Shown: in pieces, positions 10,986 through 60,043 of the stretch
How the letters are laid out: each line of letters opens with the position of its first letter
How positions within the stretch are numbered: the first letter of the stretch is position 1
Assembly: GCF_003018235.1 (NCBI RefSeq)
Contig: NZ_CP027438.1
Direction: 5' to 3' (one strand)
DNA: 64,000 bases
Source of the DNA: Escherichia coli
GTDB taxonomy: Bacteria > Pseudomonadota > Gammaproteobacteria > Enterobacterales > Enterobacteriaceae
Program-made: the position numbers and the translations under genes
Notes under the pieces: model-generated
Told to the model about the DNA's origin: nothing
What the model saw: only the letters and a program-made list of their open reading frames with translations
Database searches by the model: none

Positions 10986-11774
10986 TTAGATATCGGAACT
11001 TTCTAATCGGATGCGTTTCTCTTTCTGTCTGGTGAGGAATTTTTTCGGTGTCAACCCATAATATAAATTAAACACCTTGATGAAGTGAGAAACACTTGAT
11101 ATTCCTACCATACAAGATATTTTGCTCATTTGCAATTCATTTCTTAATATTAACATCGCTGCCTTTTTCATCCTCACTTCAAGAAGAATCTGGCAAAAAC
11201 TGGTATTCTCGGCACTCAGTTTTTTACGTATAGATATTTCAGACAAGCAGATTTCTTTTGCAATAGTTGATAACTTCCATTTTTTAGATGTGTCAAGCTC
11301 AATAATCCTACGTATTCTGTCACTAAATAAATTTGTTGTTGATGTTATTAATGCGTCAAATATCCTTTGAGGATCTTGTCCTTTAGATAAAAAGCATGCT
11401 AATTTATACAGTTTGAGCCTGTAGTTATTCGTTGATTTTATTGCTTTATATAACTCATTGGATAACTTATCTTTTTCTATTAAAAATATATAATTTTCTG
11501 TCTTATTTTTTTTTGTATGACCTAGGGATTTAAGCTTACCATCATAAAAAAATGGGGACATTATCTTAATTACATTATTAATATCGCCTTGGTTTAATTC
11601 GATGCAATCATATGGGGCAGTAGTTAGCAATCTTCTCTTTTCTATAAGAAGAAAGCAATTGCTTTTAATAGTGATTGCTTTTATCCCATTGGTAATGCTT
11701 ATATGACAGCCATTTGAATTTATCAAAATGTAGTCATTGGTATGGAGTTTTTTTCTTGTCTCTATCGTTTTCAT
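10986..11774 (-). CDS. AraC/XylS-family virulence regulator of the Rns/CfaD/AggR/PerA group
   Basis: C-terminal double-HTH region closely resembles Rns-family regulators (KISCMVGISSVSHFIKVFNLYYGLTPKKF); AT-rich; divergent from the aatD-like gene. Confidence 0.8.
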   Translation of the reverse strand: MKTIETRKKLHTNDYILINSNGCHISITNGIKAITIKSNCFLLIEKRRLLTTAPYDCIELNQGDINNVIKIMSPFFYDGKLKSLGHTKKNKTENYIFLIEKDKLSNELYKAIKSTNNYRLKLYKLACFLSKGQDPQRIFDALITSTTNLFSDRIRRIIELDTSKKWKLSTIAKEICLSEISIRKKLSAENTSFCQILLEVRMKKAAMLILRNELQMSKISCMVGISSVSHFIKVFNLYYGLTPKKFLTRQKEKRIRLESSDI

Positions 11775-12128
11775 ATAAAAATATATATACCGATTTTATG
11801 ATTCTAGAATGCATTATTATACTTATATTTTCATCATGATATGTTATATTTTTCAATATTCGGCTACTCAAAGTGAAGTTTATTGGTCCCTTTTTTGTTT
11901 CTTGTAGGAGGATATTTCAATTTATTAATTTCACTGGCTTTAGATACGTTGCTGATCAGTTCTTCAACATGGTTAAGTAAATCGGCTTTGTGTTTAATAT
12001 CGAAGTTGGCTGTATTCCAAAATACAGCAAAGAACCTTGCGAAGAAGTTCGAGAGCTATATAGCCTTACATGAACGATTACCAATTCTGATAGGTCGCTT
12101 AGGCATAACAATAAAATTATACGGAAAA

Positions 12129-13349
12129 ATGATTATAGATTTCCTCATGATATTATATTTGTTTTTTTTGCTCAAGTATGTGACTAAAGGAAAATTTACC
12201 ATCGCATTATTATTCTTGCTATTTTTTAATGTTTTATTTTTCGTCTTTATTTTTGATAATAGTTCTTGGGATGTTATTAAATCTAGTTATGGGATGGCAC
12301 CATTTGCTTTGTCATCTATAATAAATGCGCAGGTTATACTAGTATTTTTTTTGCGCAATAAAGGCGCTTATAAAATTGGACTGTCATCTTTTATCCCTCC
12401 AATTTTGTTTTCTTTCTGGGACTTTAATTTTATCTTTCCCGCTCATCCGTTGATGACTTTATATCAATATGATATCTTTTATAAGTTTCTTCCCAGATTT
12501 CACATAAATTTGATTAATGTAATTATATTATATACAATTCCGTTTTGTTTTTTGTTACCATTAAAAAGAATTATTTTAATTTTATTAATCGCATGTCTAT
12601 CATTTTTTACTAACTGGAATTTATCTGAACATAAAAAATTAGGTATAAAAGTTCTTATTGTACAGACGGGGATGTATGCATCAACACATGGCAGAATGGC
12701 TGACTTAAGGGATGAAGTTTTTAAGTACAGAGATGCTGACATTGTCATTTTTTCAGAATCACCAATTGTTGGATTTAAAGATGGTAGCCGGACTGCATTT
12801 AGCCGTGAATTTCTTGATGAGATAAAAAGAAAACGTGACGGGAAACTTTATATTCTTAATAGTTATGGGTTTATTGATGATGAAAGACACAATAACAATT
12901 TAAGCTTATATGTTTTAGATGGAAAAACCTTTGTTAAATATAAAAGTAAACTTGTACCTTTTTGGGAGACACCTGGTCTATTTTATAGAGATGTTGACTG
13001 GGAATCACCATATTTTTCCATTCCATCCACAAATAACAATGATAAATATAAATTCAGAAATATATATATAAACTCATATATTTGTTATGAGGCAATGTTT
13101 GTTAATCACTTCAACAAGTTAAGTGATTTAACAATAATACAATCAAATTATGAATCATTTAGTAAAGGTTATGATAGCGTAGTGAAGAATGGTAATGTTC
13201 TGGCTTATGTGAATAAATCATATAGTTTTAAAAATTTCATATCTGTGCAAAATATGGGGGGGACTATATTTGTCGATAGCTCAGGAAGGTTTCATTGGGA
13301 TGTATATAAAAAGTCCAAAGAAAAATCTGTATTTCTTTTGGAAATTTAA
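12129..13349 (+). CDS. aatD: Apolipoprotein N-acyltransferase (Lnt)-family protein, AatD-like
   Basis: Polytopic N-terminus plus CN-hydrolase domain with Lnt-type Glu (FSESP), Lys (YKSKLVPFWE) and Cys (ICYE) motifs; longer ORF from TTG 11883 is possible. Confidence 0.6.
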   Translation: MIIDFLMILYLFFLLKYVTKGKFTIALLFLLFFNVLFFVFIFDNSSWDVIKSSYGMAPFALSSIINAQVILVFFLRNKGAYKIGLSSFIPPILFSFWDFNFIFPAHPLMTLYQYDIFYKFLPRFHINLINVIILYTIPFCFLLPLKRIILILLIACLSFFTNWNLSEHKKLGIKVLIVQTGMYASTHGRMADLRDEVFKYRDADIVIFSESPIVGFKDGSRTAFSREFLDEIKRKRDGKLYILNSYGFIDDERHNNNLSLYVLDGKTFVKYKSKLVPFWETPGLFYRDVDWESPYFSIPSTNNNDKYKFRNIYINSYICYEAMFVNHFNKLSDLTIIQSNYESFSKGYDSVVKNGNVLAYVNKSYSFKNFISVQNMGGTIFVDSSGRFHWDVYKKSKEKSVFLLEI

Positions 13350-13559
13350 TTTTACATTTAATCCAGATGAAAATATATATGTGGTGTGGAACAGGCTTCG
13401 GTTGTCGAATAATGATTATTATTTCACAAATTATGAGAGACTTAGGAAGTAATAGAGTCATACCTATAGTTATTGATAATGAGCAATCAAATGTGCTGAC
13501 ATTTGTAGCAACATGTTTATGGTTAGATTTTTATCAGAAATTACGAACAACGCTATAGA

Positions 13560-14700
13560 TAACCTGTAAGTATCCTGCATAATTGTGGTATTCATATTTA
13601 GAGATCATACGGCATAATCAATCTATCAACGAAGGAGATCGCTATGCATAAACCTGTTGTACTGGGCATCAGATCATCGCTGTGATTAAGTCAGTTGAAG
13701 CCAGACGAACCGCTAAAGATGTCTGCCGGAAGGTCGGTATCTCTGAAGCCACCTACTAAACAGATGTTTGCTGACCTGAGTCTGGAGAACCGGGCGCTGA
13801 AAGACGTTATCGAAAAAAGCATTAAAACAAGCCTTTAAGCGTGAGCTGGTCACTCATCTGATAACGACATTCGGACTCAGTATCCGTCAGGCCTGCCGGA
13901 GTCTGAACCTGAGCAGAACGGTTTACCATTACCGCTGTCAACGCCACGATTTTGACCGTCCTGAAAGGTTAGATAAGCACGTTCTACACGGCCTTTTGCC
14001 TGACTGGTTTCTGCGCACAGCAGTGTGATATTGAGGGAGCGCATGACCCTGGCAAACTGAGCTTCACCGGGACCGGTGGTAGCATGCTTATTGTTTACCC
14101 GGAAGACACTGGCTTTGTCGCTGTAGAGGAACATGGGCTTACCATGTTTTCCGATATAGCTACGGGTCGCTTCAAAATAGGTAAATGTGGATTCAGATTT
14201 CACAAACAGCAAGTGCATCAGGCGACTGGTGGCATCGTCAACATAGACAAGAGCTGTACAGGGTCGACCCCGGTTTTCAAACCAGTGGTGGTCACAGCCA
14301 TCAATTTGTATCAGCTCGCCAGCACAAGGCCGCGGTAATGAGGCTGATGAATTTTAGGTGCGCGCTGTCCGCGTGGGGCCAAAATCACGGTATTGCTCCC
14401 TGATTATACTGAGTGCCTGATCTGTCAGTGACGCTGGCAACAGACGGTTACCAGTGCGGCCACGACTCTGGTTGTTCATGCCAAGCGGTCCGAGTTGACG
14501 ATGGCGTTTCAGCAGTCGGCTGCAATGACGTGGTGTAATGCCGAGCATCTCCGCAGCCTGGCCAGGACGCAGATTGCGATCGATGACATCCTGAAGGATT
14601 TTGAGGCGGTTGATTTCTTTCACGTTAAACATCCCGGCGTCATGTATAGCCATAGAAAACTCCTCATCAGGAAAAGTGAGTCGTTGTCTAGACATACAGA
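13560..14700. mobile_element. Nested IS debris: IS3-family orfA fragment and a disrupted rve-type transposase
   Basis: Plus-strand IS3-type OrfA pieces (KDVCRKVGISEATY, LENRALKDVIEK) at about 13620-13870; minus-strand ORFs 13877-14218 and 14354-14695 give an HTH N-terminus and integrase-core fragment in different frames. Confidence 0.45.
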
Positions 14701-14959
14701 TCTGAGAACTATCGCCTGGACATCCCTAATTGGGTAATTGGAGCCACAAAAGACATTAGCAGTGAGCCTCTACAATCTTGATGCGCACAATCTATCTTAT
14801 GTTAAATCTAGACAAAATAACGTCTAAAAGCGATACCTTATACAAATAACAACACTAAATTTTTACGCCAGTAGCCCGAACTAGACTGGCCCCCTGAATC
14901 TCCAGACAACCAGTATCACTTAAATAAGTGATAGTCTTAATACTAGTTTTTAGACTAGT

Positions 14960-16120
14960 CATTGGAGAACAGATGATTGATGTATTAGGGTCGGAGAAAC
15001 GCAGACGGCGTACCACACAGGAAAAGATCGCTATTGTGTCAGCGCCAGTGATATAAGACGGTAATTCACCATTTGGATTGTCCGCTCCACCCAACATGTT
15101 GTTTCCTTAAGGTTCTCACACCAGGAAGGAAGTCTTACTGCTGTGGCCGCCGGAGAACAGGTTGTTCCTGCCTCTGAACTTGCTGCCGCCATGAAGCAGA
15201 TTAAAGAACTCCAGCGCCTGCTCGGCAAGAAAACGATGGAAAATGAATTCCTCAAAGAAGCCGTTGAATATGGACGGGCAAAAAAGTGGATAGCGCATGC
15301 GCCCTTATTGCACGGGGATGGGGAGTAAGCTTCGTCAGCCGTTGTCTCCGGGTGTCGCATGCGCAGTTGCACGTCATTCTCAGACAAACCGATGACTGGA
15401 AGGATGGCCGCCGCAGTCGTTATACTGATGATACGGATCCATGTTATCGGAGAGCTGCCCACGTATGGTTATCGTCGGGTATGGGCGCTGCTTCGCAGAC
15501 AGGCAGAATTTGATGGTATGCCTGCGATCAATGCCAAACGTGTTTACCGGATCATGCACCAGAATGCGGAAAAACCTGCTGTACCGCCATCGAAACGGGC
15601 ACATACAGGCAGAGTGGCCGTTAAAGAAAGCAATCAGCGATGGTGCTCTGACGGGTTCGAGTTCTGCTGTGATCGTGAGGCACTGCACTGGGCGGTGACT
15701 ACCGGCGGCTTCAACAGTGAAACAGTACAGGACGTCATGTTGGGAGCGGTGGAACGCCGTTTCGGCAACGATCTTCCGTCGTCTCCAGTGGAGTGGCTGA
15801 CGGATAATGGTTCATGCTACCGGGCTAATGAAACACGCCAGTTCGCCCGGATGTTGGGACTTGAACCGAAGAACACGGCGGTGCGGAGTCCGGAGAGTAA
15901 CGGAATAGCAGAGAGCTTCGTGAAAACGATAAAGCGTGACTACATCAGTATCATGCCCAAACCAGACGGGTTAACGGCAGCAAAGAACCTTGCAGAGGCG
16001 TTCGAGCATTATAACGAATGGCATCCGCATAGTGCGCTGGGTTATCGCTCGCCACGGGAATATCTGCGGCAGCGGGTCTGTAATGGGGTAAGTGATAACA
16101 GATGTCTGGAAATATAGGGG
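14960..16120 (+). mobile_element. IS2-like element, degenerate
   Basis: orfA start MIDVLG..RRRRTTQEKIAIV is followed by a non-IS2 segment and stop; orfB split between ORFs 15286-15513 and 15359-16117 (frameshift), with recognisable InsD motifs ([27 protein letters not shown]). Confidence 0.65.
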
Positions 16121-16668
16121 CAAATCCACGAACCCAAAGTGGGTTATGTACAGATGAAGGCTGACAGTGTCATATACAGTCACGTGCTATTATTGGTTGG
16201 GCTATGTTGCCATGTCTGGAGGCGTTATGTCCCCCACAGGGCATTATCGTTCGCTTAGCATAGTTCAATATTACAAATGGTAGAATCACTTTTTAAATAA
16301 CATCCTATATATGCAGAGCTGCTGCACTATAACTTTGGTATCATCTATGGGGTAAGTGTAAAATATCAATAATGGCTCAAGTTACTTTCGTTATTATGTA
16401 AGGTATATATTCATGCATATTTATACGGTAGCCTATTATGTAGAGGATATACAATAGCTATGGTTTATTTTCCTTTGCTAGGATTTGTATGATTTTTTAC
16501 TCATTTACAGCATTGACATCAGTAGACTGTGATTCTAGGTGTGTAACCCGAAGATGTTATTTTTTATATCTAGTCAGTATACAGCCAAATAGAGTGCAGG
16601 TGTTTTTTGTTGCTATAAAAATCGTTGGAATAATTAAATGGTATTATCAATGAACCATCAGCAATAAT

Positions 16669-17796
16669 ATGTATATATATATAGTTGAAGCAATATTAAA
16701 TCTCAAAGAAAACATCAAATACACATTAACATTTATATTATTTTTATCACTTAGTTTTCTTGGAGTTATTATTACAGATTCTTTAATTTATAGCGTATCA
16801 ATACAGGCTGAAAAAGAATTAAAGTCTAATGGAAACAATATTATGTCTATTGATTTACATACCCCTACATCAGCAGATAGGATAAAGAAAGTATTAAGTA
16901 AATGTTGTACAGAGCTATCTTTTTCACAACATTCTTTTCTGAATGGAGGGAAATCACCTTATTCCAGTGACGGATTGCCCGTAATAGCTGTAGATAAAAA
17001 AGGGATTAGTCTTATTATGGATGAAAAAATTGGAAAAAAATTCGAAGGTAATGTGGCGGTTTACAATAATAATAAACAAACAGAGTCAATTAATCCAGAA
17101 TCTATATTCCTAAATGGCTTGCCTTTTCAAATTATTGGCATAAAGAATAAATCCAAAACAGAGTTTCTTGATAGTCTTGGGTTATCCACGAACAGTTCAA
17201 ACGAGAAATATTATATCCCTCTAGAGACTCTGTTTAGGTTTAATCTATCTAATGAGATCGATAATGTAAAAATAATAATGAATAGAGATGTAACCTCTGA
17301 CATGATAACAATGATAGAACATACACTAAATGAAAACAATATAAATAGATACACAATAACGACATCTTTAGATGCAAGAGAAATTGTGGATAAGGTATTA
17401 AACAGATTCTCTATTCTTACAAATTCAATATATATATTATTAACTACTACAGCTATTTTTAGTAGCATAACTGTATGTAAAAGAAATTTCTTTTCCAGAA
17501 CAACAGAGTACTCATTAAAATTAATACATGGTATATCTTATAGCTCTATAAGAACAATATTAATAATAGAGACCATTTTTACTGTTGCTGTAAGTCTATT
17601 ATTTTCCATTCTAATTTCGGCATTAACAATAATATCAATGTCGGGATTGCTATCTATTGATATAAGCATAAGATGGTTTATGATAATAATATCTTTAACT
17701 ATTGTACTATTAACTTGTTTTAGTGCTAACTTCTATTACAGCAATAAGACCTTTAAAATAAACCCTATCGAGCTAATAAGATTAAGAGCAAAATGA
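16669..17796 (+). CDS. aatP: ABC-transporter permease (MacB/FtsX-like), AatP-like
   Basis: 375 aa, N-terminal TM helix, periplasmic domain, C-terminal TM bundle; first gene of a permease/OMP/adaptor/ATPase set in aatPABC order. Confidence 0.6.
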   Translation: MYIYIVEAILNLKENIKYTLTFILFLSLSFLGVIITDSLIYSVSIQAEKELKSNGNNIMSIDLHTPTSADRIKKVLSKCCTELSFSQHSFLNGGKSPYSSDGLPVIAVDKKGISLIMDEKIGKKFEGNVAVYNNNKQTESINPESIFLNGLPFQIIGIKNKSKTEFLDSLGLSTNSSNEKYYIPLETLFRFNLSNEIDNVKIIMNRDVTSDMITMIEHTLNENNINRYTITTSLDAREIVDKVLNRFSILTNSIYILLTTTAIFSSITVCKRNFFSRTTEYSLKLIHGISYSSIRTILIIETIFTVAVSLLFSILISALTIISMSGLLSIDISIRWFMIIISLTIVLLTCFSANFYYSNKTFKINPIELIRLRAK

Positions 17797-19004
17797 AATA
17801 TTTCAAAAATTTGTCACTCATAGTCTTTGTTAATTTTTGCTTTTGTAGTAATGCCTTGTCCTCATGCAGTCTTGATGTATATTTGATGAAATCGAAAACA
17901 TATAGATCATTCAATATAGAGCAAGAAGAAACAAGCATACAAAATAAGCATTTTTCTTCGTCGTATTTACCAAGTATATCTGTAGGAATGGGGCAATATA
18001 TTAATAATGACAAAGGGTTCGTAGACCTTGGAAAGACTTCTTTTTATATTTCAGCGTCACAACTTATCTTTTCAGGTGAAAGTTTAGGATATAATAATAA
18101 AAAAAATGAAATTGATGATAATAGAAGGCATATTTCATTCGAAAAAGAAAAAAATGATATGTTACTGAAAATATATGAAGATACAATACAACATAAATAT
18201 TTAAGTGAAAATATAAAACTAACATTAAATCAACTAAATAAAGTTCAGGCTGAGTATCAAAAATCACTATTGGATTTAAAGTCTGGTAATATACCATCAC
18301 TAGAAGTAGATGTTAAGTCATTAAATGTTTCAAAAATGAAAAATACTCTTAATACACTTTACGATGACTTAAAATTACTTGAGGAAAAATTTATTGCTGA
18401 TTATTCAATACCTCCTGAAAATATATCTAAAATTACTGACAGTGATATTATATCATGTAAGTCAATGGGATATCGCGAGCTGCTCGAAACAAACAAACAG
18501 AATAAACTACAACAAGCAGATGTTGAACTTGATATCAATAAGTCGGCACTACTTCCGTCTGTATATTTATCTGTTGGGTTGACACCAAAAAATGAGGGAA
18601 CACTCAGAGACTTGAATCTTCGGACAATGAACTATAATGGTGGGATAAGTGTTAGCATTCCATTAACGAATATTTTTAATTCTTTCGCTAACCAAGAAAA
18701 ATTTGCACTTAGTGTTACTAAAGCTAATCTGGAGTCAGACGATGAGAAAAAAAAACTGCTTATAATGAAGAAGAATATTCTTAATAAATACTCGAACATT
18801 AAAAATGACATACCCATTTTGGAAAAAGAAGTTGAATTAAAAAGAAAAAAAATAGAATACCTGCAGTGGATGGTAAAAGATAAAAAAGAAAATGTGCTTT
18901 CATACCTTAACTCACAGGATGAATTATATGACTCAACAATTAAACTTAACAAATATAAGCGCGATCTCAAATATTACAAGCTTTATCTTGATTTTATTAA
19001 TTAA
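17793..19004 (+). CDS. aatA: TolC-like outer-membrane channel, AatA-like
   Basis: Signal peptide and coiled-coil-rich TolC-like sequence; start overlaps aatP stop. Confidence 0.6.
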   Translation: MKYFKNLSLIVFVNFCFCSNALSSCSLDVYLMKSKTYRSFNIEQEETSIQNKHFSSSYLPSISVGMGQYINNDKGFVDLGKTSFYISASQLIFSGESLGYNNKKNEIDDNRRHISFEKEKNDMLLKIYEDTIQHKYLSENIKLTLNQLNKVQAEYQKSLLDLKSGNIPSLEVDVKSLNVSKMKNTLNTLYDDLKLLEEKFIADYSIPPENISKITDSDIISCKSMGYRELLETNKQNKLQQADVELDINKSALLPSVYLSVGLTPKNEGTLRDLNLRTMNYNGGISVSIPLTNIFNSFANQEKFALSVTKANLESDDEKKKLLIMKKNILNKYSNIKNDIPILEKEVELKRKKIEYLQWMVKDKKENVLSYLNSQDELYDSTIKLNKYKRDLKYYKLYLDFIN

Positions 19005-19740
19005 TTTATTTCCATGTGCCTTGCATGCCGAAGTCTATTATGGCATTTTAAGAGGAAGTGAGTCTATTTTATACAAAAGTCCATATTCCGGATTTATTGA
19101 TATAAATAATTTAAAAGAAGGTGATATCCTAGAAAATGAAAATATTTTCACCATTCATAATTATGAGTATGACAATAAGAAAAAAATTCTTTCATTACAG
19201 ATAAAAAAAGAAGAAAAGCAGAGGAAAAGATTAAAAAGGCAATTGAAAGACTCTTTTTTGGCCTATCAAAATGGATTTTTGTCCCATAATGACTTGGCTA
19301 ATTATGAAGACAAATTGGATGATATAGAGCTTTCATTGATAGGTTTACGTTCTGATTTAAATACTTTGGATAATGTATTGCAGTTAGGTAAAGTGAATAT
19401 AGATAGACCTTTTATTGTAAGAGATATTGGTGTTACAAATCGACAATATGTTAATTCTGGAGATTCATTAATAAACATTGAATTATTAGATAATTTCTTC
19501 GTTGATATAAAAATTGATCCAGTTGTGTTTAAAGGTAATATAAAGAATAAAAACGTAAATTATGTGTCCATGGTTGGGAACGTAACTGGAAAGGCTTCTG
19601 TTGTAAGAATCTCTAGTGTCATTGATAACGCAGGTTCTAAAGCATCAGGAATGAGGATGGTCACTCTACTCATACATGGCGAGAGAAACACTCTGCAGTC
19701 TCTATTAGACACAGCATTTAAGATTGAATTTAATGATTAG
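18928..19740 (+). CDS. aatB: Membrane-anchored periplasmic adaptor, AatB-like
   Basis: N-terminal hydrophobic anchor (ISNITSFILILLINLF); start chosen at ATG 18928 with SD AGGAT; longer ORF from 18892 overlaps aatA. Confidence 0.5.
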   Translation: MTQQLNLTNISAISNITSFILILLINLFPCALHAEVYYGILRGSESILYKSPYSGFIDINNLKEGDILENENIFTIHNYEYDNKKKILSLQIKKEEKQRKRLKRQLKDSFLAYQNGFLSHNDLANYEDKLDDIELSLIGLRSDLNTLDNVLQLGKVNIDRPFIVRDIGVTNRQYVNSGDSLINIELLDNFFVDIKIDPVVFKGNIKNKNVNYVSMVGNVTGKASVVRISSVIDNAGSKASGMRMVTLLIHGERNTLQSLLDTAFKIEFND

Positions 19741-20362
19741 CTTATATATAAACAAAAAAGAATTCAGAGATAAGACAATACTCTCTGACACATGCATTGA
19801 GATTATTGAAGGCGGTTTTTATGTAATAACCGGTCCCTCGGGTGTCGGTAAAAGTTCATTGCTTAATATAATTGGTTTATTAGATGGAGATTTTGATGGA
19901 AACTATATTTTCTATGATAAAAAGATAAGTTTCAGTAACTACAATAGTACGCAAGAGCTAAGGAGGTTGTATTTTGGATATATATTCCAAGACTCATTGA
20001 TTAATGAGAGGCAAGATCTTATTCGTAATATTCTTTGTTCTGTTGATTATTCCCTGCAGAACAACAGGAGGCATCTTGTTAATCATTTTTTGTCAGTTGT
20101 TGGATTATCTTCAAGGACAGAGAGTGCTTCTGTTTTATCAGGGGGGGAAAAACAAAGGCTCGCTCTAGCTAGAGCACTAATAAAAAAACCCAAAATATTA
20201 TTAGCAGATGAGCCAACGGCTAGTCTTGACAGAGAAAATAAAGAAAAAATAATGGATATATTCAAAAAATTCACTAATGAAGGAGGTACTGTAGTAATGG
20301 TGACTCATGATTTGGAATTAATAGATGAAAAAATTCAAGTAATAAGACTTAATAATCATTAA
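19724..20362 (+). CDS. aatC: ABC-transporter ATP-binding protein, AatC-like
   Basis: Walker A GPSGVGKSS, ABC signature LSGGEKQR, Walker B ILLADEP; 212 aa. Confidence 0.75.
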   Translation: MNLMISLYINKKEFRDKTILSDTCIEIIEGGFYVITGPSGVGKSSLLNIIGLLDGDFDGNYIFYDKKISFSNYNSTQELRRLYFGYIFQDSLINERQDLIRNILCSVDYSLQNNRRHLVNHFLSVVGLSSRTESASVLSGGEKQRLALARALIKKPKILLADEPTASLDRENKEKIMDIFKKFTNEGGTVVMVTHDLELIDEKIQVIRLNNH

Positions 20363-20657
20363 GAATCGATAAGCTATTTTTATCATCGGGCGGCACTGTA
20401 AGCCAGCGATAAATACGCAACGAAACGTACCATGCTGACAGATATCTTTAACAGTAACTACCAGTATTATGGCTATCGTCGCCTGCATGCGATGCTCAGA
20501 TATGAGGGGCTATGATTCTCAGAAAAATCTGAACGCAGACTTATGGTTACACGCCCCGACGCTGAACATGGTCAACACCATGTTGGATAACGCTGTCGAA
20601 ACGTTAAATACAGACGACTGACTGATGATACACAGCGATAATATTAGATTTACTAAG

Positions 20658-23102
<2,445 letters not shown>

Positions 23103-23113
<11 letters not shown>

Positions 23114-23915
23114 CTACATGCAGGCCTACCGAGCATCCGGTCTTTTGCCCGACATGGCGAACAATAACGCGGTGCATGTTAACGAAAAAATCATACCGAA
23201 TGTGGCCGCCGGTCTGATAAAAGTTAAACCCCTGGCAGAGCGTTTCACCGGAGAAGGCGCTATTAAGTTCGTCGACGCATCTCAGGAAAAATATGATGTA
23301 ATCATAACCTGTACAGGCTATGAAATGCCTGATTACTTGTTCATTCAGGGATTTGACAGAACACAGCTCTATGAGCACTTTTTCTGGACAGAGGACCCTT
23401 CTCTGGCCGTCATTAATCCCCCGGTGGATACCGCCGGTTTCGGGGCTGCGTTTCCCTATTTTGATATCATCAGCCAGTGGGTAATGAACGTATTCTCCGG
23501 GAAGACTTCCCTTCCGGAAAAAGAAGCTATGCGCAAATGGTGTGCTGAGCACATGGCTTCACTTCATGTTAAGCGATTTTATGACAGCTGGCTGGAAACC
23601 ATCCGGATTGGGTTGCTGTCAGGTCTTCTCCCGGACCCGGCCCGCGACTTTTCCCGATACTGGAACATCATCAGCAGTATGGTCAAACCTGCCTATCTGG
23701 CCACTCCTCCCGCATTTCCGGAGCATGGTATGATGGACAGCCTGTTTGATTTCCGGATCGCCAAAATACGCATACTGTCAGGGCTGGGAAACGATGCTCT
23801 CGGTTATTTACTGAAAAAAGGTGATATCACTGACGCAGAATACCGGGCGGCCCTGGAAATCGATCCCCGGCAGTCGATTTCTGTACACCTGCCGTATTCA
23901 CAGACCTACCTCTGA
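23103..23915 (+). pseudogene. Flavin-dependent monooxygenase-like protein, C-terminal fragment
   Basis: Contains FMO-type motif YDVIITCTGY; lacks the N-terminal FAD/NADPH-binding region. Confidence 0.35.
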
Positions 23916-23920
23916 TAAAA

Positions 23921-23950
23921 AGGGCCAGTAACGGCCCTTTTCTTTTTCAT
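23921..23950. terminator. Bidirectional rho-independent terminator between convergent genes
   Basis: GGGCC-agtaac-GGCCC hairpin flanked by A-run and T-run (aaaagggccagtaacggcccttttcttttt). Confidence 0.5.
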
Positions 23951-24429
23951 AATATTCTGAGCAGTCTTGCCGGGTTTCCTGCATAAATGCCTTTGTTCTC
24001 AATCGGTTTTACCACAACTGAACCCGCACCAATAACAGTTCCGCTGCATATATACGGAGACAGAATAATGGCTCCACTGCCAACAGTAACCGAATCCCCC
24101 AGGGTAATGCTGATCCAGTTATCCGGTGACGGATCTGGTGCTCCTGAACGAAACAGATCGTTGGCGAACGTCACGTTATGACCAATGAAGCAGTTCTCCC
24201 CCAGTGTTACGTTCTCACAAATAAACGTGTGCGACTGTATCCGGCTTCCACTACCAATGACACAGCCTTTCTGTATCTCAACGAAGGGGCCGACAAACAC
24301 GTTGTCCCTGAGTTCACATTCATAAATGTTGACCGGTTTGACAATACGGACATTGGTCCCATAAATCACATCCCGGACAGCACATTCCATAAATTTCATA
24401 CTCACACGTCCTTTAAATACAGATGACAC
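23947..24429 (-). CDS. Hexapeptide-repeat (left-handed beta-helix) acyl/acetyltransferase
   Basis: Repeated [LIV]G-x4 hexapeptides (VIGSGSRI, VTLGENCFIGHNV, ITLGDSVTVGSGAII, VIGAGSVV); 160 aa. Confidence 0.6.
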   Translation of the reverse strand: MSSVFKGRVSMKFMECAVRDVIYGTNVRIVKPVNIYECELRDNVFVGPFVEIQKGCVIGSGSRIQSHTFICENVTLGENCFIGHNVTFANDLFRSGAPDPSPDNWISITLGDSVTVGSGAIILSPYICSGTVIGAGSVVVKPIENKGIYAGNPARLLRIL

Positions 24430-24726
24430 TTGCCGGAATTATACAGCCCAGATTCACTTGCCATGTTTCAGAATAGCTTATAAGCCGCACTTTTACCGAT
24501 ACTCAGCAACAAATCAGGTCTGGATCCACTTCAGCCGGAAACCGGATCTGCGCGGCAGAAAAGACGCAAATAATATGATAATAAACAATACACATAAAAT
24601 CATATCAGATATGATTTTCATCATTAATTATGAAACCATATCTGATATTATTAATAATCAATAACACACAAATCATTCAGGATATGATTTTTACCTGTCA
24701 GAACATTATCAGATGGAGCGTGCAGG

Positions 24727-24987
24727 ATGGATCAGGAAATGACGTTTTCACTCAGCTATGAACAACTGACCCGGTTTGCGGAAAAACGCATCCGGGAATG
24801 CAATCTGGACAGCCAGGGCGTAACTTATCTCTGCGAGTCAGCCAAAGCCGGAGCCGTGCTGATCTTCTGGCATGAACTGGCCATAAATGGCTATACCTCA
24901 ATGAATGCCATAAAGAGACAGGAGATCATTGACGCCGACCATCAGCGCCTCAGAAAGCTCATCTGGCCGGAGGATGACTGGAAATGA
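24727..24987 (+). CDS. Hypothetical protein (86 aa)
   Basis: ORF translationally coupled (ATGA) to the downstream 196-aa ORF; GC-rich module. Confidence 0.3.
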   Translation: MDQEMTFSLSYEQLTRFAEKRIRECNLDSQGVTYLCESAKAGAVLIFWHELAINGYTSMNAIKRQEIIDADHQRLRKLIWPEDDWK

Positions 24988-25574
24988 CTCAGAGCCGCCG
25001 ACCGTCGCCACTGCAGCGGAGAGTGCTGATTGTGCTGGCTGCCCTTGATGAAAAACGGCCAGGCCCCGTGCTGACGCGGGACATAGAGCGGGTGCTGGAG
25101 CGAAGCGGGGAAGCCCCGGTCTACGGGCCAAACCTGCGCGCCTCCTGCCGTCGTCTGGAGGATGCCGGCTGGCTGCGTACCCTGCGCGCTCCGAACCTGC
25201 AGCTGGCAGTGGAGCTGACGGACGCCGGCCGTTCCGTGGCACAGCCTCTGCTGCTGGCAGAACAGGACCGCCTCTGGGCAGAACAGCGTGCGGCAGAAGT
25301 CGTCGTACTGCCGCTGGTCCCGGCAGCAGGTCTGCCCGCAGACGGCACTTCTGCCACTGATCTGGCGGTGCATCTGAACGGCATAACGTATCAGGCCTGC
25401 CGTGGGGATTTTGTGGTGCGTCTCGACGGCAGCACCTGTCTGCAGTTATGGAATAAAGAAGGCAGAGTGGTACGCCGGGAGGGCGATCCGCTGGAAGTGG
25501 CGCAGTGGCTGCAGGCCTGTCACGATGCAGGAATGGAGGTTCGCGTACAGATAAATGAAAGTACCGCTCCGTAA
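24984..25574 (+). CDS. Hypothetical protein with putative winged-helix N-terminus (196 aa)
   Basis: Balanced composition on plus strand (RRVLIVLAALDEK...LTRDIERVLER); the antisense ORF is Pro/Arg-rich junk. Confidence 0.35.
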   Translation: MTQSRRPSPLQRRVLIVLAALDEKRPGPVLTRDIERVLERSGEAPVYGPNLRASCRRLEDAGWLRTLRAPNLQLAVELTDAGRSVAQPLLLAEQDRLWAEQRAAEVVVLPLVPAAGLPADGTSATDLAVHLNGITYQACRGDFVVRLDGSTCLQLWNKEGRVVRREGDPLEVAQWLQACHDAGMEVRVQINESTAP

Positions 25575-25593
25575 GAACACGCCTGTGCACGGT

Positions 25594-25941
25594 TTACACA
25601 TCATCCCATGGTGGCAGCCGGTTAACTTTCCTGCGCCACCAGTGGAAAGAGGCCATGCACAGTCCGAACAAAAAACCACCCGTGATACTTATAATAATGG
25701 CCTCACCTGCCACCATTCCTGACGTCCCCCAGTAGATAAACCACATTGCACATCCCCAGGAAATGCCCCATAAGCTCCCCATCAACAGCGTGACCTGCCA
25801 GAACGGCATAAAGGGTAATGGCGGAAGCCGGATACCCAGCCGCCATAGAATACGCAGAAGAGGAGGGGCATAATTGCTCCGCCACATCTTTTTGCTGTCC
25901 ATCAGGGCAATGGCCCGGGCTTTTTTCTGCTCAAAGGTCAC
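25594..25941 (-). CDS. Hypothetical membrane protein (115 aa, two TM segments)
   Basis: Two hydrophobic, Trp/Gly-rich segments; no recognisable family. Confidence 0.3.
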   Translation of the reverse strand: MTFEQKKARAIALMDSKKMWRSNYAPPLLRILWRLGIRLPPLPFMPFWQVTLLMGSLWGISWGCAMWFIYWGTSGMVAGEAIIISITGGFLFGLCMASFHWWRRKVNRLPPWDDV

Positions 25942-26069
25942 AGGAGCACCTCCGTTCCATGATGTAAACGTGACACAGATTATTGTTATTGATTATTATT
26001 ATCATGCTGTGATTATGTTGTCATGCACCGGTACACTGACAAAAGAAAGGGAGAACAGGAGGCTGGCTG

Positions 26070-26405
26070 ATGAACAGGAAATATTATCTTAATAATATGT
26101 GGTGGGGATGGTTTATGGGTGGGTATACTCTGTATATGTCATGAGATTATGAGTTTAAATACAGATTGCTGTTCTGGTGTATTTCTCTCTGCGGAATGGT
26201 TTTGTATCCGGTTGCCAGATGGTGTATTGAAAATACTGCCCTGAAATTTACCCGGCCTCATTTCTGGAATAGCGGTTTTTTTGCTGATACTCCCGGAAAA
26301 ATGGGATTACTTGCGGTTTATACGGGTACTGTTTTCATATTATCTCTTCCGTTAACTCTGATATATATTCTTTCTGTTATCATAAAAAGGCTGTCTGTAA
26401 GATAG
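26070..26405 (+). pseudogene. imm: Colicin Ia/Ib immunity-like gene with in-frame TGA at codon 25
   Basis: ATG 26070 has a strong SD (caGGAGGctggctgATG); in-frame TGA at 26142-26144; frame continues into the hydrophobic ORF 26166-26405; convergent with the colicin gene. Confidence 0.55.
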
Positions 26406-26426
26406 ACAGCCTGTCTTATATATTAT

Positions 26427-28306
26427 TTAAATGCCCCAGAACTTATTCGCTTTTTCCACAAGCGTTTCATCAATCAGAGCACCGGTGACAGCCATCAGTA
26501 AACCATACCCGATAATGCCTAAAGCGCTTCCGGTAAGAATACTGAAGACCAGAGCAACAAGAGCCGTTGCGGCATTACCTGCTATGATGGTTTCTGTTTT
26601 AACAAAAAAAGGACGCCAGTTATCTGTCCGGGCAGCCTTACCAAACTCAGTGATCCAGTCAGCAAAATTTGTAATTTTTCCTGCATATCCCAGTCCGCGA
26701 CTGAACCTGTTCAGATTAGACGATATATCAGACAGCTTCACAGACTCAAGGGCTGCGGCAATCGCTGCACGATCTTTTGCATTAATTTTTTTGTTAATGT
26801 CAGCCCGGTACTTTTCATACGTTTTTAATGCCTCTTCAACATTACGTATTTTCTTCCCTTTAGCCTGCCCGGCCATCTCTCTGGCTAACTGCTCAGCTTT
26901 TGCACCATATTTTTCTGAAACTGATTTCAGGAACTCTGTTGTGAAATTAATTGCGTCTTTCGTTGCCTTCAGTTCATCCTGTTTTCTTTTCTCTTCCGCT
27001 ATCTTCTGATTGATGCCGGCAAGCTGGTTACGGATATTCTCTTTTTCCTTCAACAGGGCATTAAGAGCGTCATTTGCATTCTTTTGCTCATTTGTTCTGG
27101 CACTGAGGTTATTTCTCGCCGAATTTACCGCAGATTCAGCAGAGGTGATTTTATTTCTGGCATCAAGCAATCTTTGCCGTAACTTATCCCATTCAGCAAC
27201 TTCAGCATTATAAATTTTCTTGTCACCTTCCACATCCTCTGTCACCACCGGATTCCGGTCATTCAGAATATTGCGTTATAGTCCAGACCGGAATGGGTCA
27301 GAAGATAATTCAGGTTTGCACGGTTATCAATGACCGCGCTGGTTGTGATTTTTATCGTACCGGCAAATCTCGGATCACCACTCACAACAATAGAATGATT
27401 TGTTGATGAACGCCCCGGGAAATTTTCAGGGGAAACTATCGTTTTGCCGTCAGGCGTGTTTTTCTGTTGCGTCAGCTGTTGTTCAGCTCTGGTTAATGCA
27501 TTACGGGCCGTGTTAAGCGATTCCGTCACCGAACTGAGTTTATTCCGGGCCTCTGAAATGGCCCTGTCATTCCGTGTCTGCTGCCCGAGCAGACGGGCCT
27601 GTTGTGCATCAAGAACGGCAAGGGCTGCCCCGCCATTTTTTTCCAACTCTGACAACCGCGTGTCCAGAATACCTTTTCTGCGCTCGTATTCAGCAAGCAT
27701 ATCAGCGGCCTTCTTGTCTGCGTTCTGCGCATCCTTCTGCCGTTTTTCAGCCTGTTCGATTAACGACCTGGCCTCGCGGGGAGATATACGAAGAGAATCA
27801 GCATCAGCAAACAGCATCCGGCTCTCTGTATGCAGGCGGAGGGCATCATATCCGGCGATTTCAGTACGGAATCCGTATTCTCTCAGCTCTGCCTGCAGGA
27901 GTCTGAACTCCTGTCGTGTAATATCAGCGGTATCTGCGTTTCCGGCACGGAGTGTTTTCAGTGTGTTTTCATCTTTTTCCCTTGCAGCAATCGCCGCAGA
28001 GAGGCGTTTTCCGGCTTCAGTACGTTTATTCTCATTCTCTTTCTGCTGCGCGCTGAGCGTGTTTTTGTACGCTGTGATTTCCTTGTCCCTTTTTTCGATA
28101 TCACTCCGGGTTGGGGAATCATCGACCCACTCGTTTCCACCCCAGATGGTTTTGTTCCCGAAGGAATTCCATGCAGGCGGGGTACCATGAAAGACATCGA
28201 CACGTGGAGGGTTTACATAAATATCAACGGCCATAATTTCATGGCCATCTGAATCATACCCCAGCGATTCTGCACCGGGATTTGTAATACGTACAGGGTC
28301 AGACAT
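26427..28306 (-). pseudogene. cia: Colicin Ia/Ib-type pore-forming colicin, frameshifted between the central and pore-forming domains
   Basis: ORF 27263-28306 gives the N-terminal and central domains; ORF 26427-27248 in another frame gives the channel domain ending ...LVEKANKFWGI; break lies at TATAACGCAATATTCTGA. Confidence 0.75.
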
Positions 28307-28347
28307 TCGGTATCTCCTTCATCCTCTGAGGAAAACAAATGAATTAA

Positions 28348-28378
28348 CTGCTTGCATATATGGATACATATACAGTAT
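28348..28378 (-). promoter_or_regulatory. Putative tandem LexA (SOS) boxes of the colicin promoter
   Basis: Minus-strand tACTGTATATGTATCCATATATGCAAGCAGtt, i.e. CTGT...ACAG-like overlapping boxes about 40 bp upstream of the colicin start. Confidence 0.45.
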
Positions 28379-28688
28379 TAATTTATTAAGGAGAAAATGG
28401 CATGTCAAGACTTAATAATAGTGATTATCATTAACATGAGGTGGTGTTATACCGTTCAGAAAGCCTGCTGACGCTGTGGCAGCATCACAGTCTGAGTATT
28501 CTCTGGTGCAATACAAAATTGACTCTTTGCAAAATCGCACTCAACACGTTTTATCTGTGCGTATAGCTTGCGGCATGACAAGACATAGATTTGATTACTG
28601 TCACAAAAGTAAGTAAAAACTTTATCATCTATCACACCGAATATTTTAAGAATTAGACGAGACGCAAAAACAGAAGATAGTGCACTAA

Positions 28689-28958
28689 TTATTGCAAGGA
28701 GATTTTTATATGTGTTATCTGATTTTTTATTTTTTCACTAATATATACAAATAAAAACAAGGCAAAAAATATAATTGTATACATGCATGTTATTACATAT
28801 GACTTATCTGTTGGAGGAGGTGGTAAAAACTGGAGAGGGGATACAAGTAATACAAGGAAAAAGAAAGTTAAAGTTTTCTTTTCCTTGTTATCGTATTTTC
28901 CCAATAGAAACAAATATGACAATATAATTAAAAGCATGGATGTATATATGCTAATCAT
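28689..28958 (-). CDS. Hypothetical small membrane protein (89 aa)
   Basis: Two hydrophobic helices separated by a KYDNKEKK loop; very AT-rich. Confidence 0.3.
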   Translation of the reverse strand: MISIYTSMLLIILSYLFLLGKYDNKEKKTLTFFFLVLLVSPLQFLPPPPTDKSYVITCMYTIIFFALFLFVYISEKIKNQITHIKISLQ

Positions 28959-29158
28959 TGTATGCTCCTTTAATGACAGGATGATTGGCCGTTTTTACCT
29001 GTAGCTTTTATTGCTCCTGATGCTGAAGAACTTAAAACAGTGCTTGCGATAGCTCCTTTTACAGTATTACCAAAAAATACATTGTCTGTCATGCCGCCAA
29101 CAAAGCCGGCTCCTGCACTTAATCCGGCACCGCTCCAGCTAATAATTTTTCGGTTCAA

Positions 29159-29563
29159 TCACCGGAAGAAATTATCAACGTAATCATCCCATGCATGCCC
29201 CTGAACAGACCACTCACGATTAACCGGAGGCGGGAATCCACTTCGACAGTAGCCGTTCTTCCCCTCAAAATCAAATACACCATGTGGATATCCGTTTATC
29301 AGCAGAACACACTTCAGGCAGTCCTCAGACCAGCCAATCTTCACATCAGAGGGGATGTGAGCATCTGAAATATCTTCAACGTTATATATATGCACAGCAT
29401 CCCTGACAGGGTTACCTTCAGCGGACTCATCAAGTGCATAGAAATATCCGGTATTCCCGTCATCTTCAAATACAGCGGCCAACATTCCATCAGGAGCTAA
29501 ACTTTTTATCGCCATAGCCTCACCAACTATGAGTTGAGTCTGTGCCGTCACGAGTATTGTCAT
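29159..29563 (-). CDS. Hypothetical protein (134 aa) ending at a TGA; the frame continues into a 62-codon Gly/Ala/Ser-rich segment
   Basis: Stop TGA (29159-29161) directly abuts TTG-initiated ORF 28970-29158 in the same frame (GAGLSAGAGFVGG glycine-zipper-like). Confidence 0.3.
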   Translation of the reverse strand: MTILVTAQTQLIVGEAMAIKSLAPDGMLAAVFEDDGNTGYFYALDESAEGNPVRDAVHIYNVEDISDAHIPSDVKIGWSEDCLKCVLLINGYPHGVFDFEGKNGYCRSGFPPPVNREWSVQGHAWDDYVDNFFR

Positions 29564-29732
29564 AAAACATGTCTCTCCGTTCCAGTTTGTCTGATGATAT
29601 AAATCCCCCGGGACTCATCCCGGCAGGTAAAATCATACTCTCAACAAAACTTTTCTTCTCCTGCCTCAGGCGAGTCCACAGAGAAAATAACAATTCTGAG
29701 AGTTATCTGCGGGAAAGGCTATTTATATGTTA

Positions 29733-30020
29733 CTATCTCATTCTCTCACTGGCGAGATTATAAACGTTACTACGTTCTCGTTTTCCTACCGCAACAACCG
29801 CAATAATTAACATATCGTCAATCACCTGATAAACCAGACGAAATCCCGATGCACGTAGTTTAATTTTGTAGCAGTCCTTTAGCCCTCTTAGTTTTGCCGA
29901 CGGTATATGAGGATTTTCGCTGCATTTTTTTAGTTTTTTCACAAACTGTTGTTGAATGGTCTTATCCAGTTTCAGCCATTCCTTGAGCGCATCATCCCTG
30001 AATTTTACCGTATAAGTCAT
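29733..30020 (-). CDS. relE: RelE/ParE-family mRNA interferase toxin
   Basis: 95 aa with RelE motifs (LRGLKDCYKIKLRASGFRLVYQV...VVAVGKRERS); overlaps antitoxin stop. Confidence 0.8.
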   Translation of the reverse strand: MTYTVKFRDDALKEWLKLDKTIQQQFVKKLKKCSENPHIPSAKLRGLKDCYKIKLRASGFRLVYQVIDDMLIIAVVAVGKRERSNVYNLASERMR

Positions 30021-55065: not shown

Positions 55066-56125
<1,060 letters not shown>

Positions 56126-59233: not shown

Positions 59234-60043
59234 TTATTGACTAAATAAATCCATATATTTTTTAGGCGTTATGTTAAAGTTTCTTTTAAATACAGTAATA
59301 AAGTAAGAATAATTATCATAACCACACATTTGTGATATTCTCTGCACTGAAGCCCTTTTCTGTCGCAAGAATTTAGCTGCCGCGTTCATTCTTGCTGACA
59401 AGCAAATCTCCGAGAAGGTTGTATTTTCATATTGTAACTTTCTTTTTAGCGATGATGGACTAAAATATAGGTATTTAGCCATATCTTCAAGTGACCATTT
59501 TTTATCCAAGCTATTATATACAATATTGTATACTTTCTCCTTAAGAGTTGCCTCTGATGAACTTCTGATCACATAAGGTAATGAATTATTGGTAATAAAA
59601 TGTGAAAGAATATAATAGAATGAATAAATAATATCAGCTGAATGGAGGTCATTAAGCCTCTCTTGAGGTATATTTCCTACTTTACTCAAGATACTATTAT
59701 CATATGCTATGTCAACGGCTTTTATGACCCATTCATTTGCATTATCTGAAGTTCTTGCTTTACCTGTTTCTGATTTTATATCGTCAAATCCTTCGCAGAA
59801 TTTTTTTAAAACATAAGATGGTACAGGAATCAGTGAAAAAACAGGTTTTTCTTTTGATTTTACTGATGACAGACCTACCTTTATTCCTTTTTTTATAAAA
59901 TAAACACCCTCAGATATAGCATAGCAACATAAACTATCCATGTTGCATATAACAACGTTCCCTTGAGCCACATTAACTATAGTCGAATAGGCAACATAGT
60001 AGTTTTTAACCAAGTGTTTTTGTGTATGGGTATTTATATTCAT
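59234..60043 (-). CDS. AraC/XylS-family regulator (second Rns/AggR-like paralog)
   Basis: C-terminal double HTH (RISQMCGYDNYSYFITVFKRNFNITPKKY); AT-rich; divergent from a CexE/Aap-like gene. Confidence 0.75.
   Translation of the reverse strand: MNINTHTQKHLVKNYYVAYSTIVNVAQGNVVICNMDSLCCYAISEGVYFIKKGIKVGLSSVKSKEKPVFSLIPVPSYVLKKFCEGFDDIKSETGKARTSDNANEWVIKAVDIAYDNSILSKVGNIPQERLNDLHSADIIYSFYYILSHFITNNSLPYVIRSSSEATLKEKVYNIVYNSLDKKWSLEDMAKYLYFSPSSLKRKLQYENTTFSEICLSARMNAAAKFLRQKRASVQRISQMCGYDNYSYFITVFKRNFNITPKKYMDLFSQ

Follow-up and report, generated by a model that had tools for sequence, protein, structure and literature searches.

Does a stretch of Escherichia coli plasmid DNA in which the Lnt-like acyltransferase gene aatD lies head to head with an Rns-type regulator, and several kilobases from the transporter genes aatP, aatA, aatB and aatC, encode a complete Aat system for protein acylation and export, and what does this separation mean for the control of aatD? 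We addressed this question in 64,000 nucleotides of contig NZ_CP027438.1 (assembly GCF_003018235.1), hereafter called the window. The Aat locus in the window is complete and, as far as its sequence tells, functional-looking, but divergent. Our analyses make it probable that it represents a complete Aat system of a deep clade carried on an IncFIA-type virulence plasmid, and that its layout reflects separately promoted modules of one regulon shuffled by insertion sequences (IS). The features of the locus are the following.

10986-11774, minus strand: reg1, an Rns/CfaD-family AraC-type transcriptional regulator of 262 aa.
11775-12128: the composite reg1-aatD spacer of 354 bp, consisting of a transposase remnant and a 115-bp native aatD leader.
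12129-13349, plus strand: aatD, an Lnt-like membrane N-acyltransferase of 406 aa; the reading frame is open from TTG 11883.
13564-16128: a mosaic of three truncated insertion sequences, with IS3-family, ISNCY and IS2 pieces.
16669-17796, plus strand: aatP, an inner-membrane permease of the FtsX/LolC-E type, 375 aa.
17793-19004, plus strand: aatA, a TolC-like outer-membrane channel of 403 aa.
18928-19740, plus strand: aatB, a periplasmic adaptor of 270 aa from its likely start; the reading frame is open from 18892.
19733-20362, plus strand: aatC, an ATP-binding cassette (ABC) ATPase of 209 aa from its likely ATG; the reading frame is listed from TTG 19724.

The initial annotation had described a divergent pair of an Rns-type regulator and an Lnt-like gene, followed about 3.3 kb downstream of aatD by transporter genes in the order aatP-aatA-aatB-aatC. 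Both descriptions agreed with the open reading frames (ORFs) listed above, which place reg1 and aatD head to head, and the measured distance from the aatD stop to the aatP start was 3319 bp. In the ORF list covering 9000-22500, the interval of about 13350-16668 contained no long native ORFs. The gene blocks had a GC content of about 30%, and the stretches derived from IS one of 46-53%. The interval had also been described as nested IS debris. The debris was found, but not the strict nesting, as three truncated pieces lie side by side: an IS3-family fragment (about 13564-13935), ISNCY transposase fragments (13877-14695, minus strand; NCBIfam E 1.5e-33 and 3.9e-17) and an IS2 fragment (14882-16128, plus strand; NCBIfam TnpA 6.6e-36 and TnpB 6.7e-152) showing 96-97% identity to IS2 by megablast.

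First, we considered whether these genes belong to Aat at all. The Lnt-like gene could be a plasmid copy of the housekeeping Lnt, and the transporter could be an exporter of drugs or toxins of the MacAB-TolC type, with no relation to Aat. By BLASTP, the window protein matched AatD of ETEC (enterotoxigenic E. coli) H10407 with 29% identity (E 3.8e-32), AatD of enteroaggregative E. coli (EAEC) with 28% identity (E 4e-29), and AatD of EAEC/WS3294A with 27-28% identity (E 1.6e-28), whereas the match to K-12 Lnt was not significant (E 0.11, against 1e-29 to 1e-32 for the AatD proteins). In a neighbour-joining tree rooted on Lnt, the window protein fell in the AatD group. This group consists of two deep clades, one containing the characterised EAEC and ETEC proteins and the other, hereafter clade B, containing the window protein and Yersinia proteins; the identity between the clades is 24-31%. 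The acyltransferase thus grouped with AatD both by BLASTP and in the tree, and the grouping with Lnt that had been named as a ground for rejection was not found. The Glu/Lys/Cys motifs ascribed earlier to the Lnt-like gene were confirmed: E210, K272, E280 and C319 were invariant across 14 AatD sequences and aligned with E267, K335, E343 and C387 of Lnt, E280 corresponding to the stabilising Glu. The equivalent four residues are essential in AatD (Icke et al. 2021, PMC7943197).

E. coli Lnt (PDB 5N6L, 5VRG and 6Q3A) shares with AatD the membrane domain, the periplasmic carbon-nitrogen hydrolase domain and the aligned E/K/E/C residues. However, Lnt is a 512-aa protein with a C-terminal helix, whereas the window AatD has 406 aa, about 100 aa fewer, and is without that helix. 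The substrates also differ: Lnt acts on diacylglyceryl-cysteine, and AatD on the N-terminal glycine exposed after the signal peptidase I cut (PMC7943197).

The start of aatD is most likely ATG 12129, because ten full-length relatives are all 406-408 aa long and the alignment with EAEC AatD begins there. Translation probably does not begin at TTG 11883, where the longer ORF opens. Upstream of the ATG, 11883-12128 (plus strand) forms 82 stop-free codons in frame into aatD within 31% GC DNA, for which we estimated by hand a chance of about 0.001, and the NCBI gene call is a longer protein of 484 aa (P0001). A ylbG-like remnant on the opposite strand (11927-12013) accounts for part of this stretch. 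An origin of the 82-codon extension as an IS2 OrfB remnant was also considered and rejected, as tblastn gave it no support and supported instead the N-terminus of a ylbG-like transposase on the opposite strand.

Subsequently, the transporter proteins were compared by BLASTP with the reference loci of EAEC O104:H4 pAA (aatPABCD), ETEC WS3294A and ETEC E24377A. Every protein was a full-length match to its Aat counterpart, with 29-60% identity. Against EAEC/WS3294A, AatP showed 41-43% identity over its full length (E 1e-95 to 5e-101), AatA 29-30% (E 1e-62; the EAEC match spans 396 aa), AatB 38-44% (E about 1e-67 to 1e-69) and AatC 60% (E 5e-85). The genes overlap by 4 nt (aatP/aatA), 77 nt (aatA/aatB) and 8 nt (aatB/aatC), so that aatP-aatA-aatB-aatC are arranged as an operon would be. 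The most likely starts of aatB and aatC are 18928 (270 aa) and 19733 (209 aa), respectively; contig L011, which shares 99.9% identity with the window in this region, has a 270-aa gene call at the position of aatB.

A resemblance to ABC transporters, adaptors and TolC in general was also seen, which favours the idea of a drug exporter. AatA hit the TolC family model TIGR01844 below its cut-off (E 3e-9), AatB gave a weak sub-threshold match to a resistance-nodulation-division (RND) adaptor model, and AatC matched many ABC ATPase models, including MacB and LolD, all below cut-off in NCBIfam. The MacB score was, however, only 121 bits against a cut-off of 966, and that of LolD 128 bits against 308; AatP had no NCBIfam match, including MacB and Lol models; and the ATPase and the permease are encoded by separate genes, unlike the fused MacB. 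The transporter set, for which an affinity to MacAB had been raised as the point to check, therefore matches AatPABC, full length and in the aatP-A-B-C order. Together with the AatD comparisons, these results effectively refute the reading of the genes as Lnt and MacAB-TolC, to which we assign hardly any probability.

The candidate substrates lie about 40 kb away, beside a second regulator.

59234-60043, minus strand: a second AraC-family regulator, HilD/HilC-like, 269 aa, divergent from the first CexE-like gene.
60978-61385, plus strand: CexE/dispersin-like candidate substrate 1, 135 aa.
62458-62823, minus strand: CexE/dispersin-like candidate substrate 2, 121 aa.

The CexE/Aap-like ORFs that had been pointed out at 60978 and 62823 do exist, and each encodes a predicted signal peptide followed by glycine. 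Candidate substrate 1 begins with MKKKIQYFPFALLIGLSFNSFA followed by GSHQQ, its signal peptide ending in NSFA before GS, and candidate substrate 2 begins with MKKLIFSVSLMLLSVSAFA followed by GSQSQ, its signal peptide ending in SAFA before GS; both cleavage sites were predicted by eye. The glycine after the predicted signal peptidase I site was kept in all homologues examined, and AatD acylates the N-terminal glycine of CexE (PMC7943197). By BLASTP, the matches to H10407 CexE were weak but significant (E 2e-6 for substrate 1 and 4e-6 for substrate 2). Those to a protein of the related locus L007 that carries the Pfam Dispersin domain PF28204 were stronger (E 3e-10 and 9e-10), and substrate 1 matched the small protein encoded just upstream of aatD in contig L006 with E 7e-22. 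The two candidates are 36% identical to each other. A Pfam-A scan of both proteins gave no match; PF28204 was found only as a precomputed annotation on relatives.

Aat systems put fatty-acyl chains on small coat proteins of the CexE/dispersin type and export them. By homology with EAEC 042 and ETEC H10407, the two CexE-like pre-proteins would cross the inner membrane via Sec, and the signal peptidase I cut would expose an N-terminal glycine, on which AatD, with its Glu-Lys-Cys triad, would put an acyl chain. The ABC transporter AatP/AatC, the adaptor AatB and the TolC-like channel AatA would then bring the lipidated protein to the surface of the cell. It is likely that reg1 activates aatD, aatPABC and the cexE-like genes in trans, and it would probably act on the adjacent type IV pilus operon too. 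If the regulator acts in trans, linkage of the modules would be unnecessary.

Next, the layout was compared with those of known systems. The initial annotation had assumed that aatD follows aatC in described loci and that the window is consequently rearranged. This holds for the pAA plasmids of EAEC 042 and O104:H4, in which aatPABCD and aap (dispersin) are regulated by AggR. The EAEC proteins are homologues of those in the window (AatP 41%, AatA 29%, AatB 38%, AatC 60%, AatD 28%), the aatA/aatB and aatB/aatC overlaps are the same, and the catalytic residues of AatD are conserved. In EAEC, aatD starts 17 bp after aatC within a single operon, whereas in the window it lies 3.3 kb upstream of aatP with its own leader. 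As a general premise, however, the assumption fails. Among 826 Aat systems, aatD is located more than 1 kb from aatPABC in 25%, a figure that includes the 9% of systems in which aatD stands with aap/cexE, away from the transporter (Icke et al. 2021, PMC7943197), and it is split off in both H10407 and E24377A as well. Belmont-Monroy et al. (2020) devoted a section to how aat operons are rearranged in genomes and described the AatD family as regulated by AraC/XylS-type regulators. The split layout of aatD and aatPABC has thus already been published, and a claim of novelty for it is unsupported.

ETEC H10407 carries one of the closest known systems. It has the same five components, a CexE-type substrate with N-terminal glycine and an IS-rich F-type virulence plasmid, p948, on one strand of which aatD (83487-84731) is followed by about 4 kb of IS5/IS3/IS1, then cexE and aatPABC. 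The order aatD, several kilobases of IS, aatPABC is thus the same as in the window, and the Rns-family gene cfaD is on the same plasmid, divergent from aatD on its other side. The identities to the H10407 proteins are 29% (AatD), 35% (AatP), 29% (AatA), 31% (AatB), 55% (AatC) and 36% (reg1 against CfaD). The two loci differ in that H10407 cexE lies immediately upstream of aatP, whereas the cexE-like genes of the window are 40 kb away, and in that cfaD is 4.6 kb from aatD, whereas reg1 is directly adjacent to it. E24377A has IS3 copies after aatPABC and, beyond them, an inverted aatD, the product of which is 96% identical to the H10407 protein. CfaD strongly up-regulates in H10407 the clusters that the authors named cexE-aatPABCD (Hodson et al. 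2017, PMC5554520). Since aatD on p948 is about 4 kb from cexE-aatPABC, the set up-regulated by CfaD includes a physically separate aatD.

The relatives of the window locus were then examined. Among 72,556 plasmids, only NZ_CP076711.1 from E. coli O158:H23 (L001/L005) carried the locus, and among 5,426 complete E. coli genomes only NZ_CP076711.1 and the plasmid cM8a p2 (77% nucleotide identity) had this aatD. A search of 5.8 billion proteins gave 17 AatD clusters, 55-100% identical to the window protein and belonging to E. coli and Y. enterocolitica; nearly all of the named ones were called hypothetical, and none had a Pfam domain on record. In addition, at least 11 contigs, assembled from independent samples, showed the same arrangement with 99.9% identity. 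In the closest relatives (L007, L009, L019, L025 and L029), the identities to the window proteins are 59-91% for AatD and 52-62% for the regulator, and for AatPABC, in L007 and L029, 57-86%. The arrangements found were as follows.

L007 and L008, E. coli: cexE, aatD, a 2.2-kb gap with an IS3-family fragment, aatPABC.
L025, Y. enterocolitica: cexE, aatD and the regulator in tandem.
L023, Y. enterocolitica: aatD, then the regulator.
L006, metagenome contig: aatD directly preceded by a small CexE-like gene; transporter absent within 10 kb.
L009 and L029 (cM8a p2), E. coli: type IV pilus operon, regulator (plus strand), phosphatidylinositol-specific phospholipase C (PI-PLC) gene, IS debris, aatD.
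L029 (cM8a p2): aatPABC inverted, 8.8 kb from aatD, adjoining the HilD-like regulator.
L019, E. coli: aatPA (minus strand), regulator (plus strand), 3.3 kb, aatD.

Module order and orientation thus vary among the clade-B loci, and the occurrence of the same modules in other orders and orientations in L007, L009, L019, L025 and L029 supports shuffling. IS remnants were found at the boundaries of every module. The window, L018, L007 and L009 share the same IS3-family fragment downstream of aatD; hence, the break between aatD and the transporter genes is old in the clade. In none of the clade-B loci examined does aatD follow aatC; usually it lies no more than a few kilobases from the Rns-like regulator or a cexE gene. 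The relatives are experimentally uncharacterised and their proteins annotated as hypothetical, and they share with the window an aatD apart from aatC. Window 20552-20609 matches, over 58 bp, sequence that comes after the regulator in L009; this was considered as a sign of block inversion and set aside, as the segment is inside IS debris.

This recurrent company of aatD raises the idea that in clade B evolution has coupled the gene to the Rns-like regulator and to the substrate gene rather than to the transporter operon, and that N-acylation of glycine is possibly a separately regulated step. We regard this as improbable. If true, the regulator and aatD might form a feed-forward unit, or AatD might lipidate more than one client; candidate clients would be the two CexE paralogues and perhaps N-terminal-Gly proteins of the pilus cluster, some of which could be kept on the cell and not exported by AatPABC.

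The regulator and the spacer bear on the idea raised in the initial annotation, in which the divergent regulator-aatD pair of the window is an evolved unit whose shared bidirectional region couples the autoregulation of reg1 to aatD and makes the acylation capacity independent of the transporter operon. As to the regulator itself, reg1 matched H10407 CfaD with 36% identity over 253 aa (residues 15-248 of 262, E 6.6e-43), that is, in both domains including the N-terminal one. By this full-length similarity to CfaD (AggR was not compared), reg1 belongs with the Rns/CfaD type, as it had originally been named. NCBIfam AraC-family models (GadX, YdeO and AraC) covered only residues of about 140-253, the helix-turn-helix half, and all scored below their cut-offs. 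Orthologues with 52-62% identity adjoin type IV pilus and aatD genes in the relatives.

The head-to-head position of reg1 and aatD, 354 bp apart, speaks for such a unit, and so does a recurring linkage of aatD to an Rns-like regulator: the regulator stands in tandem after aatD in Yersinia L025 and L023 and 3-4 kb upstream of it in L009, L019 and L029. The composition of the spacer, however, argues for a different origin. Its segment 11928-12015 aligns at 78% nucleotide identity with transposase pseudogenes of the ylbG type, and by tblastn the remnant (11927-12013, minus strand) corresponds to YlbG residues 4-31 with 72% identity (E 1.6e-7). In L018, a relative with 91% identity, the homology to the window starts only at 12014 and a different IS fragment lies upstream. 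Accordingly, the native aatD leader is only 115 bp long (12014-12128). Furthermore, in L009 and L029 the orientation of the regulator relative to the pilus operon and aatD is opposite to that in the window.

Promoter searches were also made. The published AggR/Rns promoter architecture consists of WWWWWWWTATC and a -10 element 21-23 bp further on (PMC6392122). The regions upstream of aatD, reg1, aatP, both cexE-like genes and the HilD-like regulator gene were scanned for this box, with the known EAEC aatP promoter as a positive control, which was recovered; boxes were no more frequent than in the background. Phylogenetic footprinting of the aatD and aatP leaders across the clade found no shared motif; the leaders were not alignable between subclades, and those of aatD are not conserved across the clade. 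A general sigma-70 and terminator scan of 10800-20700 stayed within chance, with 46 promoter-like sites where 43.6 were expected and 3 terminators where 5.7 were expected. A perfect box was present 102 bp upstream of aatP in the window, but the best -10 candidate is at a spacing of 19 bp, outside the published range, and we treat it as a lead only. The aatD leaders of L009 and L029 do fit the AggR architecture (PMC6392122), with a TATC box, 22 bp and then TATAAT, which would also be expected of an evolved regulator-aatD unit. From this box pattern, regulator-dependent promoters specific to aatD appear plausible in clade B.

In the window spacer itself, no AggR-type box with a correctly spaced -10 was found, and the density of boxes was that of the background. 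Because of the transposase remnant in the spacer, the 115-bp shared leader and the lack of a convincing AggR/Rns-type promoter, the pairing of reg1 and aatD looks like the product of IS-mediated juxtaposition across an IS remnant, not like a designed bidirectional control region. Taken together, these findings make the evolved divergent unit unlikely.

Our preferred reading, a complete but IS-shuffled Aat regulon, has to be weighed against several findings that tell against it. The AatD sequence had no match in Pfam, NCBIfam or PDB in single-sequence searches, and a profile built from 14 AatD sequences retrieved no Lnt chain from PDB, only spurious glucocorticoid-receptor matches. Since sequence and profile searches gave nothing, structure prediction and Foldseek were needed for the link to Lnt. 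The AlphaFold2 model was of only moderate confidence (mean predicted local distance difference test score, pLDDT, 66; predicted template modelling score, pTM, 0.57). With this model, and in favour of our reading, the top Foldseek matches were the full-length Lnt crystal structures 6q3a, 5vrg and 5n6l (E 4e-9 to 6e-8), with soluble nitrilase-superfamily proteins ranking after them. The window AatD is only 25-31% identical to the experimentally tested enzymes, and AatD of C. rodentium did not complement EAEC (PMC7478709); for these two reasons, the substrate specificity of the window enzyme may differ. Moreover, the substrate genes are about 40 kb from the aat genes and match CexE weakly (E about 1e-6).

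On the regulatory side, the promoter scan found no box with a properly spaced -10 upstream of aatD, and upstream of aatP only one weak box with a -10, which overlaps the aatP start and is not a convincing AggR/Rns-type promoter. Rns/AggR-type regulators are usually accompanied by a small anti-activator of the ANR family (Aar/Rnr), a typical but not strictly defining companion. H10407 has such a gene (rnr), whereas a tblastn search with both H10407 ANR proteins against the whole window (E <= 0.01), which leaves about 5 kb of the plasmid outside, found none. Finally, it is by homology that we infer acylation, secretion and regulation at this locus.

Some of the same observations could indicate that the locus is a decaying remnant in which bombardment by IS has uncoupled the genes from their promoters, so that the system is no longer expressed or functional. 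IS debris lies on all sides, the native DNA upstream of aatD amounts to only 115 bp, the scans showed no recognisable promoter dependent on the regulator, and the aat genes are fragmented or unannotated in NZ_CP076711.1, where aatD, aatP and aatA are not annotated even as pseudogenes. However, neither in the window nor in the independent contigs examined is any of the six ORFs (reg1, aatD, aatP, aatA, aatB and aatC) interrupted. Furthermore, the ratio of nonsynonymous to synonymous substitution rates (dN/dS) relative to the relatives was 0.10-0.22 across the six genes (about 0.2 for reg1 and 0.17-0.22 for aatD), values that are approximate because dS exceeds 1. The NZ_CP076711.1 locus (record 20153-29807) is 99.1% identical to the window but 46 bases shorter over 9.7 kb, and tblastn identities in it fall to 61-78% through frame changes. 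The coincidence of its fragmentation with many small indels suggests assembly errors, and the record looks like an indel-rich long-read assembly, not like a case of real gene decay. H10407 is equally riddled with IS, yet has a working system (PMC7943197). Hence, we consider decay very unlikely.

The regulon may include further genes. The HilD-like regulator (59234-60043) matched the NCBIfam HilD model over residues 2-265 with E 1.4e-41, below its cut-off, and only its C-terminal half resembles CfaD. An orthologue with 80% identity (L029 23049-23873) adjoins aatC in plasmid cM8a p2, and the window plasmid thus carries two different AraC-type regulators associated with Aat parts. The HilD-like regulator is possibly part of the same regulon as the Aat genes. 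The PI-PLC gene is located between the regulator and aatD in L009 (6449-7468) and L029 (10804-11874), and it may be a further member of the regulon in these plasmids; by tblastn it was absent from the window.

According to the annotation of a 99%-identical record, 204-9735 (plus strand) of the window is a type IVb pilus biogenesis operon. It comprises genes for a secretin, a GspE-type ATPase, a GspF-type platform protein, a second ATPase, a prepilin peptidase and a lytic transglycosylase, and several minor-pilin-like ORFs. The product of the last pilus-operon gene of a relative has a Pfam Bundlin domain, and the pilus type appears to be uncharacterised. In L009, L024 and L029, the Rns-like regulator follows the pilus operon in the same orientation; it may therefore be a regulator of the pilus first and of Aat second.

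Elsewhere on the plasmid, an intact IS100 (istA and istB; 20985-22786, plus strand) is located immediately downstream of the aat block, and a RepE replication initiator (55066-55869, minus strand) scored above the NCBIfam cut-off (E 1.6e-159). Marked by IS100 and RepE, the window is most of an IncFIA-type plasmid of about 69 kb. A type I-style exporter (33346-37724, minus strand) pairs an ABC transporter of 714 aa with a HlyD-type adaptor of 427 aa. The best NCBIfam matches of the transporter were peptidase-containing bacteriocin exporters (NHLM_micro_ABC1, E 4e-108, below cut-off), and a 191-aa ORF without family match follows the exporter genes. This segment is possibly a microcin or bacteriocin export module.

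The understanding of the Aat mechanism is unchanged by this locus. What is somewhat new is the deep, rarely sequenced AatD clade, shared with Y. enterocolitica, in every examined member of which aatD is apart from aatC. Yersinia homologues of AatD had already been listed by Belmont-Monroy et al. (2020) and those of CexE by Rivas et al. (2020); clade B is therefore not unknown, only unstudied. There is also a gap in annotation, as public records give these proteins hypothetical or generic names and the sole near-identical finished plasmid leaves the genes unannotated. Because of this poor annotation, studies that survey diarrhoeagenic E. coli and Yersinia for CexE/Aat could under-count clade B. 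For the family, our results mean that the Aat pathway of glycine lipidation and export reaches a second deep clade, and that the gene order within its regulon is freely shuffled by IS across relatives, which is what an AraC-type master regulator acting in trans would allow.

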